This document shows positions 18,573-23,684 of a stretch of 64,000 bases of DNA, one piece after another. The translations under genes were made by a program, and so were the position numbers. Below the pieces are notes generated by a model. That model was not told the DNA's origin, ran no database searches, and saw only the letters and a program-made list of their open reading frames with translations. This DNA is from Christensenellales bacterium. GTDB taxonomy: Bacteria; Bacillota; Clostridia; Christensenellales; UBA3700. The DNA is taken from NCBI GenBank assembly GCA_051883395.1, contig JBJETQ010000022.1:2305-66304 (forward strand), read 5' to 3'. The stretch's first letter is position 1. Every line of letters starts with the position of its first letter.

Positions 18573-21500
18573 ATGGAATTTAAGCAAATAAAAACGATGG
18601 CAGATTCTTTTAACGCAAGATTTGCTAAGGTTATTTCATTAGAAAAAGAGATAGCTGAAGCAATTGTGAGAAATCAACAGGCGTTGGAAGAAAAAAACAA
18701 AAAACTACATAGTAATATGGAAAAGTCAGTTGATGCTTATGTAAAAGCCGAGATTGAGAAAATTCGAATAGCTATAGATTCTATGTTAGATTCGTTTGGC
18801 GTGTCTGAAAAAAACGTTGTAGTAGATACGAATAATTTGATATCTGATGAATTTGAGATTAATAAAAGCACCGTACTAAGACTAATTGCGGAGATAAACG
18901 ATATTGTCAGCGAGTTAAATAAGTATGATTTTGAAAAGAACGCACCGCTTTTAAAAGTTAGTGAAGTCAAAAATGAAGATGAGACTTTTACTATTGCAAA
19001 TAATGGTAAAAGCGAAACTATTGGCGTAAATGCAAAAGAAAACGATTATTTTTCTATCCATAATCCACAAAAAGAGATATTGGAAAAACTGCCGGTTAAA
19101 GCTGTGCAGTGTAAAAAAGTGCTTGATGCGATGGAAGCGGACATAAGAAGAAGATTCACTCTGAATGAATTTGATAAGTATCTCAAAAAATGTGAGAACG
19201 AGTATATGCACGACTGCGCCAGCACGCTCAACAAAGAGATGGCTTTGACGATAAAAAGACAATTACAAATTGAAGACGACGTTCTTAGAGAAGATAGATT
19301 TAAAGAACTCTACGAATCGGGCCTTGAAGGAAAAGTCGACACTGAAAAAGGTAGCATGAACTATCCAACAAAGATTAATTTGGGCGACATAAAGTACGAT
19401 TATATCAAAAATAAAGATTATAAAAAATATCTTAATGAAAAAGATTGTCCGTTGCTTAACAAATATACTCCAGATGGAAAGATGACGGCTCCTTACGTGC
19501 TAGAATTGAGAAAAAACGGCAACATATTTATTGAAGTTGGAGAATCGAAATTGAGTACAAACACCATTAAGTTTGTACAGAAAATTATGCTTTCATTTTT
19601 GATGTCATTTCCAATAGGCAGATTGAATTATAGGCTTATCGACCTGGACGATACGGGTGAATTTGCCGATTTCAACCAGCTTAATGCCCTAAGCGCCAAT
19701 ATGTTTAAGAAGACATACAATGACGATACGAGAGTGTCTTCGGCAATGGTAGATATGGATGAAAGAATGGGCGATATCTACGACAATAAGATTACTCTCA
19801 ACGGCGTCAAAAATATATACGACTACAATGTTATATCAGAAAATGACCCACAGTCTTTTGAACTACTGACCGTGGTGGGTTTCCCTGAATGTTTTGGCAA
19901 CGAAAAGACAGTTAAGAGATTGAAAAAAATTGTAGAAAACGGTAACCGTTCCGGTATTTTTTCTTTGATTGTCTATAACAATGCCAATCCTAACAAGGCG
20001 GCTTACGTCAATGATTTTGTTATATTTGCAAAGCAAAGCATGAATTATTTTGAAGTCGTCGGTGATAAGATTTATCTCAACGGAGATAAAAAATGTGAAT
20101 TTTTGCCAAACGAAGAATTAGTATACGACGATATACCTTCTTACACACAGGTTCTCAAACAAAATGCGAAGAAAGGGGTTAATAAAGTTATTCCTTTGTC
20201 TAAGATGTTTGAAGCCACCGAAAAAGTTGAGAATACAGACGATTTCTGCGATCCTACTGAGGTCATCGACATCCCTATAGGAATGAGAGGCGGCGAGACT
20301 CAAACGTTGGCATTTTCGTCCAAAGGAGACGGTGCAGCTCATGCTTTGGCTATAGGCGGTACGGGCTCTGGTAAATCTAATTTATTACATACTATCGTTT
20401 TGTCTGCTTGCTACAAGTATAGCCCGGATGATCTCAACATCTATCTCGTTGACTTTAAGGGCGGTGTTGAGTTCAAATACTATGAAGCCAATAGAAACAT
20501 CAACAAGCAATTGCCACACATAAAACTTACAGCGCTTTCTTCCGATCCGGAGGATGGTCTTGCCGTGCTTGCAAATATCGACAAAGAATTGACTAGAAGA
20601 GAAACGTTGTTTAGAAACAAAGAGGTAGAAGATATTATGCAATATAAAAAGCGTTTTGGAGTATTGCCAAGATTGCTTGTTATCATTGATGAAGTGCAGG
20701 AGTTGTTTGAAAGAGATCAGAATATTGGTTCTTATGCAATCAATCTTATGTCAAAATTGTTCAAAAAAGGTAGAGCCTTTGGTATCAACGTACTTTGGGC
20801 TTCGCAAAACGTACCTAAGGTAGCTGGTTTGAGAGATAAAATTATTTCGCAGATAGGAAGTCGTATTTCGCTTAAACTTAACAATCCGGAAGATGCTCAG
20901 GAACTTGATATTAACGTACAGAAGATTAAAAACCTTTCTAACACGCTAGGTGTTGGCGTAATAAAAGATACTCGTACGGGACAAAATTCCGTGGAGTTCC
21001 GTGTTGCTTATGCGGAGACATCTGACAATAGAGGAATGTACTCGGAGAAAATAAATGAGAAATGGCAAAGCGTGGTTGAAAAATGGACAGATAGAGAGCC
21101 GCTCTTTGTTGTCGGTAGCAATCTGGAAGAACCAAGAGCCGACGAAGGTATTACCCCATACACAAGTCCCGTTGATAAAACCAGCCTTGTGTCCAAATCG
21201 ATGGGAGACTACAATATTGCTGTCGGCAAAGGCTATATTTCCGGAAAGCCATATTCTATACCTATCCATTTACGTGGCTCTAATTCAAACTTGTGGTTTG
21301 CAGGAGCAAATGTGGAAGAATTGCGAGACATGATGGGATTTGCAATGTTGTCTGTGCTTATGGAAAATAGGACAAACAAGGATTTTGTTGGAGACGACAG
21401 CACGCAGATTTATTACTTTAACGGAGAAGTCATCGACCAGAAAAATCCTGACGATTTGTTCTTTGTTTTGCCTAAATGTTTTTCACGATCGGTTCAAAGC

Positions 21501-22100
21501 GTTTGCTCAATAACAGACTTGGGCAAGACGCTTGTACAACTATATAATTTGAGAAGGAAGAGAGCAGAAAACATACAAGCTAATCATAATCCTGTATTCT
21601 TATTTATCAATAAAATACAGGAAGTTGCAGTAGAGTTTAAGGATACGTCTAAGCTTATCGATTTAGCAGAAAACAGTGAAGCGGCTCCGATAGCAACATC
21701 TGCAACGCATGGATTCAGTCTGGGGCTGGGCATTGGCGGAATGGGAGCTTCGGCAGGCGGCAGCAAAATGACTTTTGCTCAATTGTTTAATGAAGTATTT
21801 GAAAACGGACCTAATCAGAATATTCATATTATCTTTTCAATTGATAAACCATCGAGCATTCCTAGCATCAATAACGCTATGAGAAATTGTCAAAACAAGG
21901 TATTTATCAAAGGTCTTGATACTGAAGCGATAACATCAGTGGCATCGTTTAGAAGTAATATTAATATTACAATTGAAGGAATGGGCATTTGTTTGAAAGA
22001 TACGGAAATGAATAAGTTCAAACCATATAGATATTATTCTGACAGAGACGCAGAGTGGCTGAAGCAGCTTGTTGACAACTATGAGGGGTTATGGAATTAA
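18573..22100 (+). CDS. operon gene 1: soluble FtsK/SpoIIIE-family (EssC-like) ATPase with an N-terminal coiled-coil region and three FtsK-like domains, only the middle one intact
   Basis: Walker A GGTGSGKSN (nt 20355-20378) and Walker B LLVIIDEVQE (from nt 20673). Also YLVDFKGGVEF and GINVLWASQ, typical of FtsK/EssC. The flanking regions (aa ~320-470 and ~880-1120) have the same strand pattern but no P-loop. No hydrophobic TM segment is visible. Confidence 0.8.
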   Translation: MEFKQIKTMADSFNARFAKVISLEKEIAEAIVRNQQALEEKNKKLHSNMEKSVDAYVKAEIEKIRIAIDSMLDSFGVSEKNVVVDTNNLISDEFEINKSTVLRLIAEINDIVSELNKYDFEKNAPLLKVSEVKNEDETFTIANNGKSETIGVNAKENDYFSIHNPQKEILEKLPVKAVQCKKVLDAMEADIRRRFTLNEFDKYLKKCENEYMHDCASTLNKEMALTIKRQLQIEDDVLREDRFKELYESGLEGKVDTEKGSMNYPTKINLGDIKYDYIKNKDYKKYLNEKDCPLLNKYTPDGKMTAPYVLELRKNGNIFIEVGESKLSTNTIKFVQKIMLSFLMSFPIGRLNYRLIDLDDTGEFADFNQLNALSANMFKKTYNDDTRVSSAMVDMDERMGDIYDNKITLNGVKNIYDYNVISENDPQSFELLTVVGFPECFGNEKTVKRLKKIVENGNRSGIFSLIVYNNANPNKAAYVNDFVIFAKQSMNYFEVVGDKIYLNGDKKCEFLPNEELVYDDIPSYTQVLKQNAKKGVNKVIPLSKMFEATEKVENTDDFCDPTEVIDIPIGMRGGETQTLAFSSKGDGAAHALAIGGTGSGKSNLLHTIVLSACYKYSPDDLNIYLVDFKGGVEFKYYEANRNINKQLPHIKLTALSSDPEDGLAVLANIDKELTRRETLFRNKEVEDIMQYKKRFGVLPRLLVIIDEVQELFERDQNIGSYAINLMSKLFKKGRAFGINVLWASQNVPKVAGLRDKIISQIGSRISLKLNNPEDAQELDINVQKIKNLSNTLGVGVIKDTRTGQNSVEFRVAYAETSDNRGMYSEKINEKWQSVVEKWTDREPLFVVGSNLEEPRADEGITPYTSPVDKTSLVSKSMGDYNIAVGKGYISGKPYSIPIHLRGSNSNLWFAGANVEELRDMMGFAMLSVLMENRTNKDFVGDDSTQIYYFNGEVIDQKNPDDLFFVLPKCFSRSVQSVCSITDLGKTLVQLYNLRRKRAENIQANHNPVFLFINKIQEVAVEFKDTSKLIDLAENSEAAPIATSATHGFSLGLGIGGMGASAGGSKMTFAQLFNEVFENGPNQNIHIIFSIDKPSSIPSINNAMRNCQNKVFIKGLDTEAITSVASFRSNINITIEGMGICLKDTEMNKFKPYRYYSDRDAEWLKQLVDNYEGLWN

Positions 22101-22896: not shown

Positions 22897-23409
22897 ATGA
22901 ACATAAGTTTGGCAGCAGTCAAAACAGCGCAACAAATATATAAAGAGCTTTATGAATCGTTAAGTTTGCAAGTGCAGGGGTTGGCATCGGAGATAAAAAA
23001 CGTATGCAAGCTAATAGCAGGTACAAAGGAAGAATTTAGTCAGAAAAAAAGTCGGCTTGATTCTTTATATCAGGGACAAAAATCCAGGATAACGGGGTTG
23101 TATAATGATTTAGAATCGGTAAAATACGAGGAAGAAACATTACAAAAAAATGAAGGCGTATCATTGGGCTTGACAGAAAAAATCTCCCAACTGGAAGAAT
23201 TTTGCGGCGCCTTGGAAAGAAATTTGAATACGATAGGTGAAGTCGGAAGATATATCGGAGATAACATCAGTAAGATAGAAGAATTGAAGATAGAAATAGA
23301 TAAGTGTTGTGATAAGTTGAATACAGAAATAATGACAAGATTGAATATTTTGCAACGCTATGAAGAATGCATTATGGAATATGCATCGTCGATGAGGTTT
23401 TGCCTATGA
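22897..23409 (+). CDS. operon gene 5: coiled-coil protein
   Basis: 170 aa counted from ATG 22897, which lies 1 nt after the gene 4 stop. Heptad-rich sequence; no recognisable family. Confidence 0.5.
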   Translation: MNISLAAVKTAQQIYKELYESLSLQVQGLASEIKNVCKLIAGTKEEFSQKKSRLDSLYQGQKSRITGLYNDLESVKYEEETLQKNEGVSLGLTEKISQLEEFCGALERNLNTIGEVGRYIGDNISKIEELKIEIDKCCDKLNTEIMTRLNILQRYEECIMEYASSMRFCL

Positions 23410-23684
23410 ACGATATAAGAGTTGTCAATACGCAAGAAAACTTGACGCTTACAATGCATTATACAAAGCAGTTAAGCGAAAATGTGGAAGATATTTTTGT
23501 CAAAACTAACGAATCGATGCAGAAACTCAAGTTTGATGCAAAAACTAATGCGGAAATAGATGAATTGCTTGCGGAAATGAAACGATTTGTTGTTGAACTC
23601 AAAAAGTTTAACGAAAAAATAGAAATCGGGGGACAACAAAGAATAGCATTGATTGAAAGATACGAAAGCATATTATCGTTGTAA
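23406..23684 (+). CDS. operon gene 6: small helical protein (about 92 aa)
   Basis: ATGA overlap with gene 5. Helical and WXG100-sized, but has no Trp. Confidence 0.45.
   Translation: MNDIRVVNTQENLTLTMHYTKQLSENVEDIFVKTNESMQKLKFDAKTNAEIDELLAEMKRFVVELKKFNEKIEIGGQQRIALIERYESILSL

Follow-up and report, generated by a model that had tools for sequence, protein, structure and literature searches.

A transmembrane-less EssC/EccC-like ATPase with WXG100-like partners opens a conserved 14-gene operon in Christensenellales

Introduction

How does a type VII-like ATPase that has no membrane-spanning segment of its own do its work, and on which proteins? The question is raised by a locus in a 64,000-nucleotide stretch of DNA (hereafter the window), a chromosomal segment of a metagenome-assembled genome (MAG) of a Christensenellales bacterium (contig JBJETQ010000022.1). 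Here an ATPase of the EssC/EccC kind (gene 1) is followed by five small helical proteins (genes 2-6), a membrane protein with leucine-rich repeats (LRR; gene 7), a TIR-like protein (gene 8), and a series of genes that includes SPFH, ESCRT-III-like, AAA and BrxL-like members (genes 9-14). A first-pass annotation, made from the sequence alone, had described a soluble EssC-like ATPase with one intact P-loop and five small proteins that carry W-x-D in place of the W-x-G of WXG100 proteins. We find that this combination is the known signature of a subfamily already described. What is new is its presence in a Bacillota lineage and the locking of the module into a conserved 14-gene operon. Its most likely role is effector handling or export in a conflict island.

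Results

A soluble ATPase with one live P-loop

Gene 1, whose product is 100% identical to an NCBI protein listed under a Christensenellales bacterium, encodes an FtsK/SpoIIIE-family ATPase (Pfam FtsK_SpoIIIE at residues 588-777, E 3.5e-28) that matches NCBIfam EssC at 3e-39 and EccCa at 4e-32. Both matches fall below the equivalog cutoffs (TIGR03928, 134.5 bits against 778; TIGR03924, 111.6 bits against 509), so that no equivalog-level assignment to EssC or EccC results. In a 19-residue Kyte-Doolittle scan the best window of gene 1 scores 1.15 and none reaches 1.6, whereas canonical EssC/EccC proteins (P0010-P0013) score 1.98-2.67 with their transmembrane helices detected, as they also are in Planctomycetota/Verrucomicrobiota relatives. 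Pfam finds no FHA domain in gene 1. In place of the FHA and transmembrane segments lies a charged helical region of about 265 residues, for which AlphaFold2 (AF2) predicts helices at 3-73, 98-115, 165-234 and 243-252 with low to moderate confidence (predicted local distance difference test, pLDDT).

Beyond these long N-terminal helices the AF2 model shows three alpha/beta domains (Table 1), and its Foldseek alignment to the cytoplasmic part of Thermomonospora curvata EccC, which holds three ATPase domains, spans 977 columns (4nh0_A, E 1.3e-22). Exactly one Walker A (GGTGSGKS, residue 595) and one Walker B (LLVIIDE, residue 701) are present, both in the middle domain, whose best matches are to D1 of EssC/EccC. 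The first domain is recognizable as an FtsK-like copy by weak HMM matches to active FtsK domains (5e-5 to 1.5e-6) and reads LIDLDDTGEF at the P-loop position, while the third matches the active domains of relatives weakly (6e-9 and 3e-6). In both flanking domains the Walker B as well as the P-loop positions are degenerate. By analogy with EccC D3, the third domain is a candidate for substrate docking. The first-pass description of gene 1 therefore stands in its particulars: no membrane-spanning segment, no FHA domain but a charged N-terminal region, a single Walker pair, and flanking domains that are degenerate copies, the last borne out by the HMM matches and the 4nh0 alignment. The coordinates and sizes given for genes 1-6 are likewise upheld, and the starts that yield 170 residues for gene 5 and 92 for gene 6 are backed by ortholog alignment.

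A single Walker pair is also found in all close homologs of gene 1 and in nearly all of 80 relatives, two of which have a second pattern match. Membrane anchoring is distributed otherwise: 65 of the 80 relatives' ATPase open reading frames (ORFs), nearly all from Planctomycetota/Verrucomicrobiota, carry a hydrophobic segment upstream of Walker A, mostly at residues 200-290, and the remaining 15 are largely truncated ORFs. One transmembrane-less relative, P0006 (27% identical), has an unrelated neighborhood, in which acidic proteins and a large protein with a GxxGxGKT P-loop are encoded.

The small proteins include distant WXG100 relatives

Gene 3 matches Pfam WXG100 (PF06013) at 2.9e-4, with 21.5 bits against a gathering threshold of 27.3. 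A word-indexed homolog search with this protein returned close orthologs only, and a pattern scan based on a narrower alignment returned only two metagenome loci, whereas the gene 3 profile, run exhaustively with HMMER against 1.84 billion representatives, gave 19 matches with E no higher than 0.001. The family alignment, consisting of the window protein and 16 representatives of 80-92 residues (n = 17), has the common motif W-[NKQ]-D-x-x-V-x-K-[FY]-L, and 7 of the 17 members match Pfam WXG100 in register, all below threshold. In the PDB the family profile matches Helicobacter pylori HP0062 best (E 0.005; the WND of the family falls on WRD), with Staphylococcus aureus EsxA next (0.2). The 17-member family was required to reach HP0062; PDB searches with five-ortholog profiles of genes 2, 3 and 4 yielded noise.

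Profile-profile comparison with hhalign extends the relationship to other small proteins. We used as reference the WXG100 proteins of the Planctomycetota/Verrucomicrobiota loci taken for comparison (PVC), which in a positive control matched a hand-entered EsxA/EsxB/YukE alignment at 2.1e-6. Gene 2 matches PVC WXG100 at 3.4e-7 (93%), EsxA/EsxB/YukE at 5.4e-6 and the C-terminus of gene 8 at 1.4e-7; the gene 3 family matches PVC WXG100 at 3.8e-6; and gene 6 matches PVC WXG100 at 1.9e-5 (78%) and gene 2 at 1.4e-5. Such values, from 1e-5 to 1e-7, are comparable to that of the control. Residues 2-110 of gene 5 match the gene 3 family at 2.3e-5 to 2.6e-6 and are linked through gene 3 only. Gene 4 gives no direct WXG100 signal by hhalign; it matches a second, 70-residue W-x-D family of the PVC loci at 1.4e-4. 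The C-terminus of gene 8 also matches PVC WXG100 (9.3e-6) and NCBIfam ESAT6_2 (7e-4). From these profile comparisons we conclude that genes 2, 3, 5 (N-terminal half) and 6, together with the C-terminus of gene 8, are distant WXG100 relatives, and that gene 4 is weakly linked to them.

In the AF2 model of gene 8 (pLDDT 74), W401-D-D (nucleotide 26816) sits in the turn between two long C-terminal helices, and Foldseek matches this hairpin to Bacillus anthracis EsxB (4j11_B, TM-score 0.73). The hairpin prediction covers this C-terminus, while for genes 2-6, which have 86-92 residues (170 in gene 5), the support comes from sequence profiles.

The motif itself is less widespread than had been claimed. 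W-x-D, not W-x-G, occupies the putative bend in genes 2, 3, 4 and 8, and neither gene 5 nor gene 6 contains any Trp; among the small proteins the title of five W-x-D carriers was therefore an overstatement, the motif being confined to genes 2-4. The Trp lies near the midpoint, as described, in gene 2 (W41 of 90) and gene 3 (W42 of 88), but in gene 4 the motif is W-Q-D with its Trp at position 26 of 86. The related pattern W[DEN][DN] occurs four times in genes 2, 3, 7 and 8, compared with twice in 10,410 residues of other window genes, so its reported presence in genes 7 (nucleotide 24005) and 8 is confirmed and is an enrichment; a shared module holds for the WXG100-like C-terminus of gene 8 but not for the N-terminal motif region of gene 7, where hhalign detects no WXG100 homology. 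Conservation of the motif also varies. EW[KNQ]D..V.K[FY]L in gene 3 and WDD[SA].M in gene 8 are invariant or nearly so, the WDD at the gene 8 bend being invariant, and both W and D of gene 4 are invariant among orthologs. Of five close orthologs of gene 2, only two keep the Trp, and two distant orthologs have lost it by deletion.

Gene 3 stands apart in its overall conservation, with 68-75% identity among orthologs against 22-42% for genes 2, 4, 5 and 6 (64-68% for the ATPase). Its C-terminus, FCxEVYNWLCxYLD, is invariant, which suggests a core structural or recognition role. Genes 2, 3 and 6 (window positions 22340-22360, 22620-22635 and 23655-23680) and the PVC WXG100 proteins of L012-L089 have in common a Tyr that stands 4-8 residues before the C-terminal end and often follows an acidic or basic residue; this Tyr may be an ATPase-docking signal.

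Table 1. Features of the locus in window coordinates, with amino acid identity to the orthologous locus L090.
Feature	Position	Strand	Description	Basis	Identity to L090 (%)
Promoter-like site	18496-18524	+	TTGACA-17-GATAAT, 11/12 consensus positions, about 50 nt before gene 1	Top-scoring + strand site
Gene 1	18573-22100	+	1175 aa, soluble EssC/EccC-like ATPase: coiled-coil N-terminus and three FtsK-like domains	Pfam, NCBIfam, PDB and Foldseek matches	65
Gene 1, residues 1-265	18573-19367	+	Charged helical coiled-coil-like region replacing FHA and transmembrane segments	AF2 helices, 35% charged
Gene 1, residues 266-535	19368-20177	+	First FtsK-like domain, degenerate, without Walker A/B	Alpha/beta fold, pLDDT 75-91
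Gene 1, residues 556-815	20238-21017	+	Sole intact FtsK-like domain	Walker A 20355-20378, Walker B 20673-20693
Gene 1, residues 896-1175	21258-22097	+	Third FtsK-like domain, degenerate	HMM; Foldseek alignment with EccC
Gene 2	22091-22363	+	90 aa, WXG100-like, SWDD at 40-43 (W41)	hhalign; ortholog alignment	34-35
Gene 3	22372-22638	+	88 aa, WXG100-like core protein, invariant EWxDANVxKFL (W42)	Pfam (sub-threshold), HP0062, hhalign	75
Gene 4	22635-22895	+	86 aa, helical, invariant W26-x-D28	Weak link to WXG100 via 70-aa PVC family	41
Gene 5	22897-23409	+	170 aa coiled coil, N-terminal half WXG/LXG-like, no Trp	hhalign to gene 3 family	34-35
Gene 6	23406-23684	+	92 aa, WXG100-like, no Trp	hhalign to PVC WXG100 and gene 2	34-35
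Gene 7	23720-25564	+	Cytoplasmic N-terminus, three transmembrane helices, extracellular BspA-type LRR domain	Kyte-Doolittle segments, LRR_5 1.8e-24	26-28
Gene 8	25616-26962	+	Zn-ribbon, TPR, TIR-like domain (26063-26500), disordered linker, C-terminal WXG100-like hairpin (26693-26959)	AF2, Pfam, hhalign	53
Gene 9	26985-27917	+	SPFH protein with C-terminal zinc ribbon	Band_7_1 2.2e-25, Zn_Ribbon_1 1.7e-8	79
Genes 10 and 11	27948-28908	+	Conserved helical proteins (27948-28301; 28294-28908)	Kept in all loci
Gene 12	28923-29516	+	ESCRT-III-like (Snf7 family)	Pfam Snf7 PF03357	88
Gene 13	29526-31079	+	Single-domain AAA ATPase	AAA 2.4e-40; marginal Vps4_C, 21.7 bits against 21.3 cutoff	76
Gene 14	31081-32583	+	500 aa, short BrxL-like ATPase without Lon protease domain; last gene of the unit	TIGR02688, PADLOC

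The module belongs to a described subfamily

Neither of the two main features is new. The W-x-D motif is not a new replacement of W-x-G, because it is found in HP0062 (WRD), in an NCBI-annotated WXG100 protein (TWQD) and in about 60 PVC WXG100 genes, and is the usual motif of the subfamily. HP0062 (PDB 3FX7, 2GTS) is a dimer of 86-residue helical hairpins whose bend reads WRD, and its gene clusters with that of the FtsK/SpoIIIE ATPase HP0066 (PMC3397514, PMC4978471). In the Planctomycetota/Verrucomicrobiota loci, the 90-residue gene adjoining the ATPase reads TW[QR]DQE..KF, and one TW[QR]D copy (L003) has a precomputed Pfam WXG100 match. More than 70 genomes of these phyla (L012-L089) carry the set of a TW[QR]D WXG100 protein, a 159-residue coiled-coil protein, a 70-residue W-x-D protein and the ATPase; a T7-like module so widespread in diderm bacteria seems little studied.

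The transmembrane-less, single-P-loop ATPase architecture is also published (PMC3482391, PMC11090510). Zhang, de Souza, Anantharaman, Iyer and Aravind described in 2012 a WXG-FtsK module as a 'mobile type VII secretion system' (T7SS), with three FtsK/HerA-type domains of which the middle one alone is intact and with adjacent solo WXG100-type genes (PMC3482391, Table 1 note 6). All of these are found here, with five helical paralogs rather than one or two and with nine further conserved genes. Firmicutes are absent from the lineages listed in that work. According to PMC11090510, Anantharaman (2012) also noted the WXG-FtsK module with TerY-P triads.

Bell et al. (2024) reported EssC homologs in Type III-A CoCoNuT loci with three ATPase domains, the central one alone active, a coiled coil of more than 200 residues in the place that FHA and transmembrane segments take in EssC, and two WXG100 genes alongside, one with the motif and one without; of the absent transmembrane domains they wrote that "a different mechanism appears likely" (PMC11090510, section 10). 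The ATPase of the Caballeronia plasmid pSBC2-5 (L095) is related in sequence to gene 1 (tblastn E 4e-41) and is flanked by VWA, WXG100, coiled-coil/restriction endonuclease (REase), CARF, PP2C and kinase genes; its WXG100 protein reads TWQD and carries the NCBI annotation "WXG100 family type VII secretion target". The window shares with these loci the N-terminal coiled coil, the single active central domain, WXG100 proteins with and without the motif, and a coiled-coil protein that carries an effector domain. The companions differ: VWA, CARF, PP2C, kinase and McrBC-like CnuB/C genes there, but LRR, TIR-like, SPFH, Snf7-like, AAA and BrxL-like genes here. The coiled coil is about 265 residues here against about 130 in L095, and the window unit has no nuclease.

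Gene 1 is also related to the ATPase of a Helicobacter plasmid, likewise transmembrane-less, whose neighbors are a WXG gene, an HNH endonuclease (toxin) gene and an immunity gene of the SUKH (SMI1/KNR4) kind. The Helicobacter ATPase is shorter, with 823 residues, and has no long coiled coil. With the canonical T7SSb (EssC/YukB, EsxA/YukE, LXG toxins) the locus has in common a homologous ATPase, WXG100-fold small proteins and an effector placed on a helical targeting domain. It differs in lacking FHA and transmembrane segments, in having one intact P-loop and not two or three, in its W-x-D bend, and in the reversed order of gene 8, whose targeting hairpin is C-terminal to the effector domain.

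A 14-gene unit with a conserved core and variable periphery

The ATPase and the five helical proteins are followed, in fixed order, by the LRR protein with three transmembrane helices, the ZnR-TPR-TIR-WXG protein, SPFH-ZnR, two helical proteins, the Snf7-like protein, the AAA ATPase and the short BrxL-like ATPase. This order is conserved in six further lineages (L001, L005/L006, L007, L008/L009, L090 and L092) at 32-68% identity, with gene 8 as low as 32%. A further contig, L093, holds the distal part of the unit and opens with a partial ORF just before gene 8; its BrxL-like gene is split into two ORFs (6504-7939). In L011 a gene 1 homolog directly abuts a BrxL-like gene fragment (13384-13722), a deletion of everything between. 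Insertion sites differ, with pyrG, a double-zinc-ribbon protein, PTS genes, GDPD/GH3 or rubrerythrin as neighbors. Gene 15 (32580-34820), a membrane-anchored protein with Listeria-Bacteroides (Flg_new) repeats, follows the island in the window and lies outside the conserved unit, since L092 has unrelated genes after gene 14. Full-length relatives of gene 1 were found only in Christensenellales-like contigs, other Clostridia and one Acholeplasmataceae MAG (L010). In L010 the gene 5 slot (6648-8210) encodes 520 residues, with a helical N-terminus and an ADP-ribosyltransferase exotoxin domain (PF03496, 2e-11), followed by an 89-residue helical protein and a PEGA-domain membrane protein.

Conservation is uneven across the unit (Table 1). 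A conflict system would be expected to look like this, with a conserved engine and with peripheral and surface parts that evolve fast. Gene 7 has the lowest conservation in the island, a sign that its surface-exposed part may be under diversifying selection. It is the only predicted membrane protein of the conserved operon (predicted segments 176-206, 217-246 and 277-308), and its N-terminal motif [MV]W[ED]xx (W96) is conserved in orthologs. Its size and copy number vary between loci: 614 residues here, two copies in L008 and L009 (5751-9993 in L009), and 1810 residues in L092 (4567-9999). The central domain of gene 8 matches the TIR domains of SARM1, SPARTA, MAL and AbTir when its AF2 model is searched with Foldseek, and one ortholog matches Pfam TIR_2 (1.7e-6).

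The distal genes and the setting of the island

From 26985 to 31079, an SPFH-zinc-ribbon protein, two helical proteins, a Snf7-family protein and an AAA ATPase stand side by side in a bacterium. Pfam PF03357 matches 7 of 7 gene 12 orthologs (best 6.1e-7), the window copy scoring 21.4 bits, below the cutoff of 27.3. The gene 12 profile has no PDB relative, ESCRT-III structures included, and the same is true of the gene 11 profile; genes 11 and 12 show no detectable relationship to each other, and genes 10 and 11 have no Pfam or PDB match. The top PDB matches of gene 13 are to the D2 domain of p97/CDC48, and no MIT domain was detected in three orthologs. A recent survey states that ESCRT components are not identifiable in bacteria, and describes archaeal ESCRT loci that include SPFH, coiled-coil and Zn-ribbon proteins (PMC11188069). 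The Band_7_1-zinc-ribbon gene beside an ESCRT-III-superfamily gene resembles those archaeal SPFH-CC-ZnR loci and the ydjFGHI operon of Bacillus subtilis (PspA and the SPFH protein YdjI) as presented in that survey, with the differences that the match here is to Snf7 rather than PspA, that an AAA ATPase is the partner, and that the set is welded to a T7-like module. Horizontal transfer from archaea is possible. Our literature search on ESCRT with WXG100, FtsK or SPFH in bacteria, and on SPFH/ESCRT-III defense, returned no description of this island.

Gene 14 exceeds the TIGR02688 cutoff (424 bits against 329) and matches BrxL in PADLOC at 6.8e-194. PADLOC recognized no complete known system, only generic FtsK-like (mad8, SspH, both with the P-loop domain of gene 1), IetA/TRIP13-like AAA and BrxL matches, and the other BREX genes (PglX, PglZ, BrxC) were found neither in the island nor in the window flanks.

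The island is a low-G+C stretch (0.33-0.39 over about 18.1-34.8 kb, against 0.44-0.47 in the surroundings) in which every gene lies on the + strand, closely packed or overlapping. Housekeeping genes flank it: ABC transporters upstream, rubrerythrin and the ATP synthase operon downstream. The promoter-like site before gene 1 is a consensus match only, the total number of such sites being not above shuffled expectation. About 8.7 kb upstream of the low-G+C island lies a tmRNA gene (9554-9896, tag ANNNKQIAVAA); family scans of the island and flanks found no integrase, although no search was aimed at an integrase or attachment repeat by the tmRNA gene. A prophage origin was considered and dropped, the island having no copy in phage or IMG/VR data; IMG/VR holds no relative apart from one PVC-type match. 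A gene for a 484-residue VWA-domain protein (36884-38338, - strand), about 2 kb downstream of the island, recalls the VWA genes that flank the WXG/FtsK insert in CoCoNuT loci, and its position here may be coincidence.

Discussion

In our judgment the module is probably the front end of a 14-gene conflict island that handles or exports WXG-tagged effectors. Gene 1 would form a hexamer, as FtsK/EssC proteins do, and its N-terminal coiled coil would recruit it to the membrane. The tether could be gene 7, the SPFH/ESCRT-III-like scaffold, or both; the first-pass annotation had named the ESCRT-III/SPFH components as a possibility, and gene 7, as the sole predicted membrane protein of the operon, is the more direct candidate. 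WXG-like dimers would dock with their C-terminal ends on the degenerate C-terminal domain, on the analogy of EsxB and EccC D3, while the single live P-loop would drive the translocation of WXG-tagged proteins, the TIR-like gene 8 among them, or their insertion into the membrane. Domains read here as toxins or effectors appear on or beside helical proteins in related modules, as an ADP-ribosyltransferase fusion in L010, an HNH enzyme in the Helicobacter module and an REase in the Caballeronia module, and would ride on the helical tag as the TIR-like domain may do here. The SPFH, Snf7-like and AAA genes may organize or repair the membrane at the site of action.

Several observations weigh against this reading. 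No channel former is apparent, since EssA, EssB, EsaA and EccB/D/E are absent from the 15 island proteins by Pfam and NCBIfam. All of the small proteins fall below the Pfam WXG100 threshold, and the case for a WXG-like nature is not convincing for gene 4 or for the gene 7 N-terminus. The AF2 model of gene 1 has a mean pLDDT of 60.7, with 75-91 in residues 300-520. In the gene 8 ortholog alignment, no Glu is conserved where the catalytic residue of a TIR domain would usually follow the conserved Trp, and because of this gene 8 may be a scaffold rather than an NADase. Related modules lie within predicted intracellular defense systems (CoCoNuT, TerY-P), a setting that agrees just as well with a non-secretory role.

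The last of these points leads to the strongest rival, an intracellular anti-phage or abortive-infection machine, which we regard as possible and on balance rather unlikely. Here nothing would be exported: the ATPase and WXG-like sensors or assembly factors would activate the TIR-like and BrxL-like proteins, while the SPFH, Snf7-like and AAA genes would deal with the membrane consequences of infection. An ATPase without transmembrane helices and with no channel partner in the family scans suits such a machine, as do the residence of its closest described transmembrane-less relatives inside CoCoNuT/TerY-P defense loci, the presence in one operon of a TIR-like fold and of a BrxL-like ATPase that passes the NCBIfam cutoff, the low G+C content and variable insertion sites that are seen in defense islands, and the mad8 and SspH matches of the P-loop domain. 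PADLOC, however, sees no complete defense system, and the rest of BREX is missing from the island. The ADP-ribosyltransferase fusion and the HNH and SUKH arrangement in relatives are hallmarks of exported polymorphic toxins (PMC3482391), and the operon has an obligatory, diversifying extracellular LRR protein. It is mostly because of these toxin-like fusions and this LRR protein that we place effector export above intracellular defense.

Vesicle export is a more doubtful proposal, and we consider it improbable. ESCRT-III with Vps4 cuts membranes in the outward-budding topology, and a Snf7-like/AAA pair acting on an SPFH platform could in principle bud outward vesicles and so replace the missing T7SS channel; the ATPase would select WXG-tagged cargo, the TIR-like effector included, and the LRR protein would decorate and target the vesicles. 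The strict linkage of genes 1-8 to the SPFH-ZnR, Snf7-family and AAA genes in all complete loci speaks for this, as do the archaeal ESCRT loci with SPFH, coiled-coil and Zn-ribbon proteins (PMC11188069). Against it stand the absence of a detected MIT domain from gene 13 and its marginal Vps4_C match, the sub-threshold score of the window's gene 12 and the lack of PDB ESCRT-III structures among the matches of its profile. In addition, work cited in that survey has B. subtilis PspA and the SPFH protein YdjI acting in membrane protection, not export (PMC11188069), and the thick monoderm cell wall is an obstacle to vesicles. If true, vesicle export would be a new secretion mode for a monoderm and would imply a genuine ESCRT-III/Vps4 system in bacteria.

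A third possibility sees in gene 1 the DNA translocase or coupling protein for conjugation of an integrated element, and in the small proteins unrelated accessory factors; it is very improbable, and we rejected it. FtsK/SpoIIIE membership and weak matches to TcpA (1e-7) and TrwB (E 0.13) are what it has in its favor. The matches to EssC/EccC are 20 orders of magnitude better (EccC 4nh0, 1.5e-26), and family scans of the island and flanks found no relaxase, type IV secretion system, FtsK-gamma or other conjugation gene; for these reasons gene 1, as judged by sequence affinity, belongs to the EssC/EccC clade, as the first-pass annotation held, and not to the coupling proteins. The conservation of the WXG100-like neighbors and the near absence of relatives from IMG/VR argue the same way. 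Least probable of all, and also rejected, is the reading of the locus as a decayed canonical T7SSb, stripped of its membrane parts and no longer functional: FHA, transmembrane segments, two of three P-loops, EssA, EssB and EsaA are indeed missing, but 14 of 14 ORFs are intact and tightly packed, their order is conserved across lineages down to 32-40% identity, the single-P-loop design is common to more than 70 relatives, and real decay, as in the L011 deletion and the split BrxL-like gene of L093, looks different.

The chief interest of the island lies in the previously unreported, conserved coupling of this module to SPFH, ESCRT-III-like, AAA, BrxL-like, TIR-like and LRR genes. With it, Bacillota and Mollicutes-like lineages join those in which the mobile T7SS-like module is known. 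A Snf7-family protein with an AAA partner in Clostridia of the human or animal gut bears on the claimed absence of ESCRT from bacteria. For a T7-like ATPase without transmembrane segments, the island supplies candidate partners in a compact, strictly conserved set (the LRR protein with three transmembrane helices, SPFH, Snf7-like and AAA), together with clear candidate cargo, a TIR-like protein with a WXG-like hairpin here and an ADP-ribosyltransferase in a relative, and this makes the question of how such an ATPase works a testable one.

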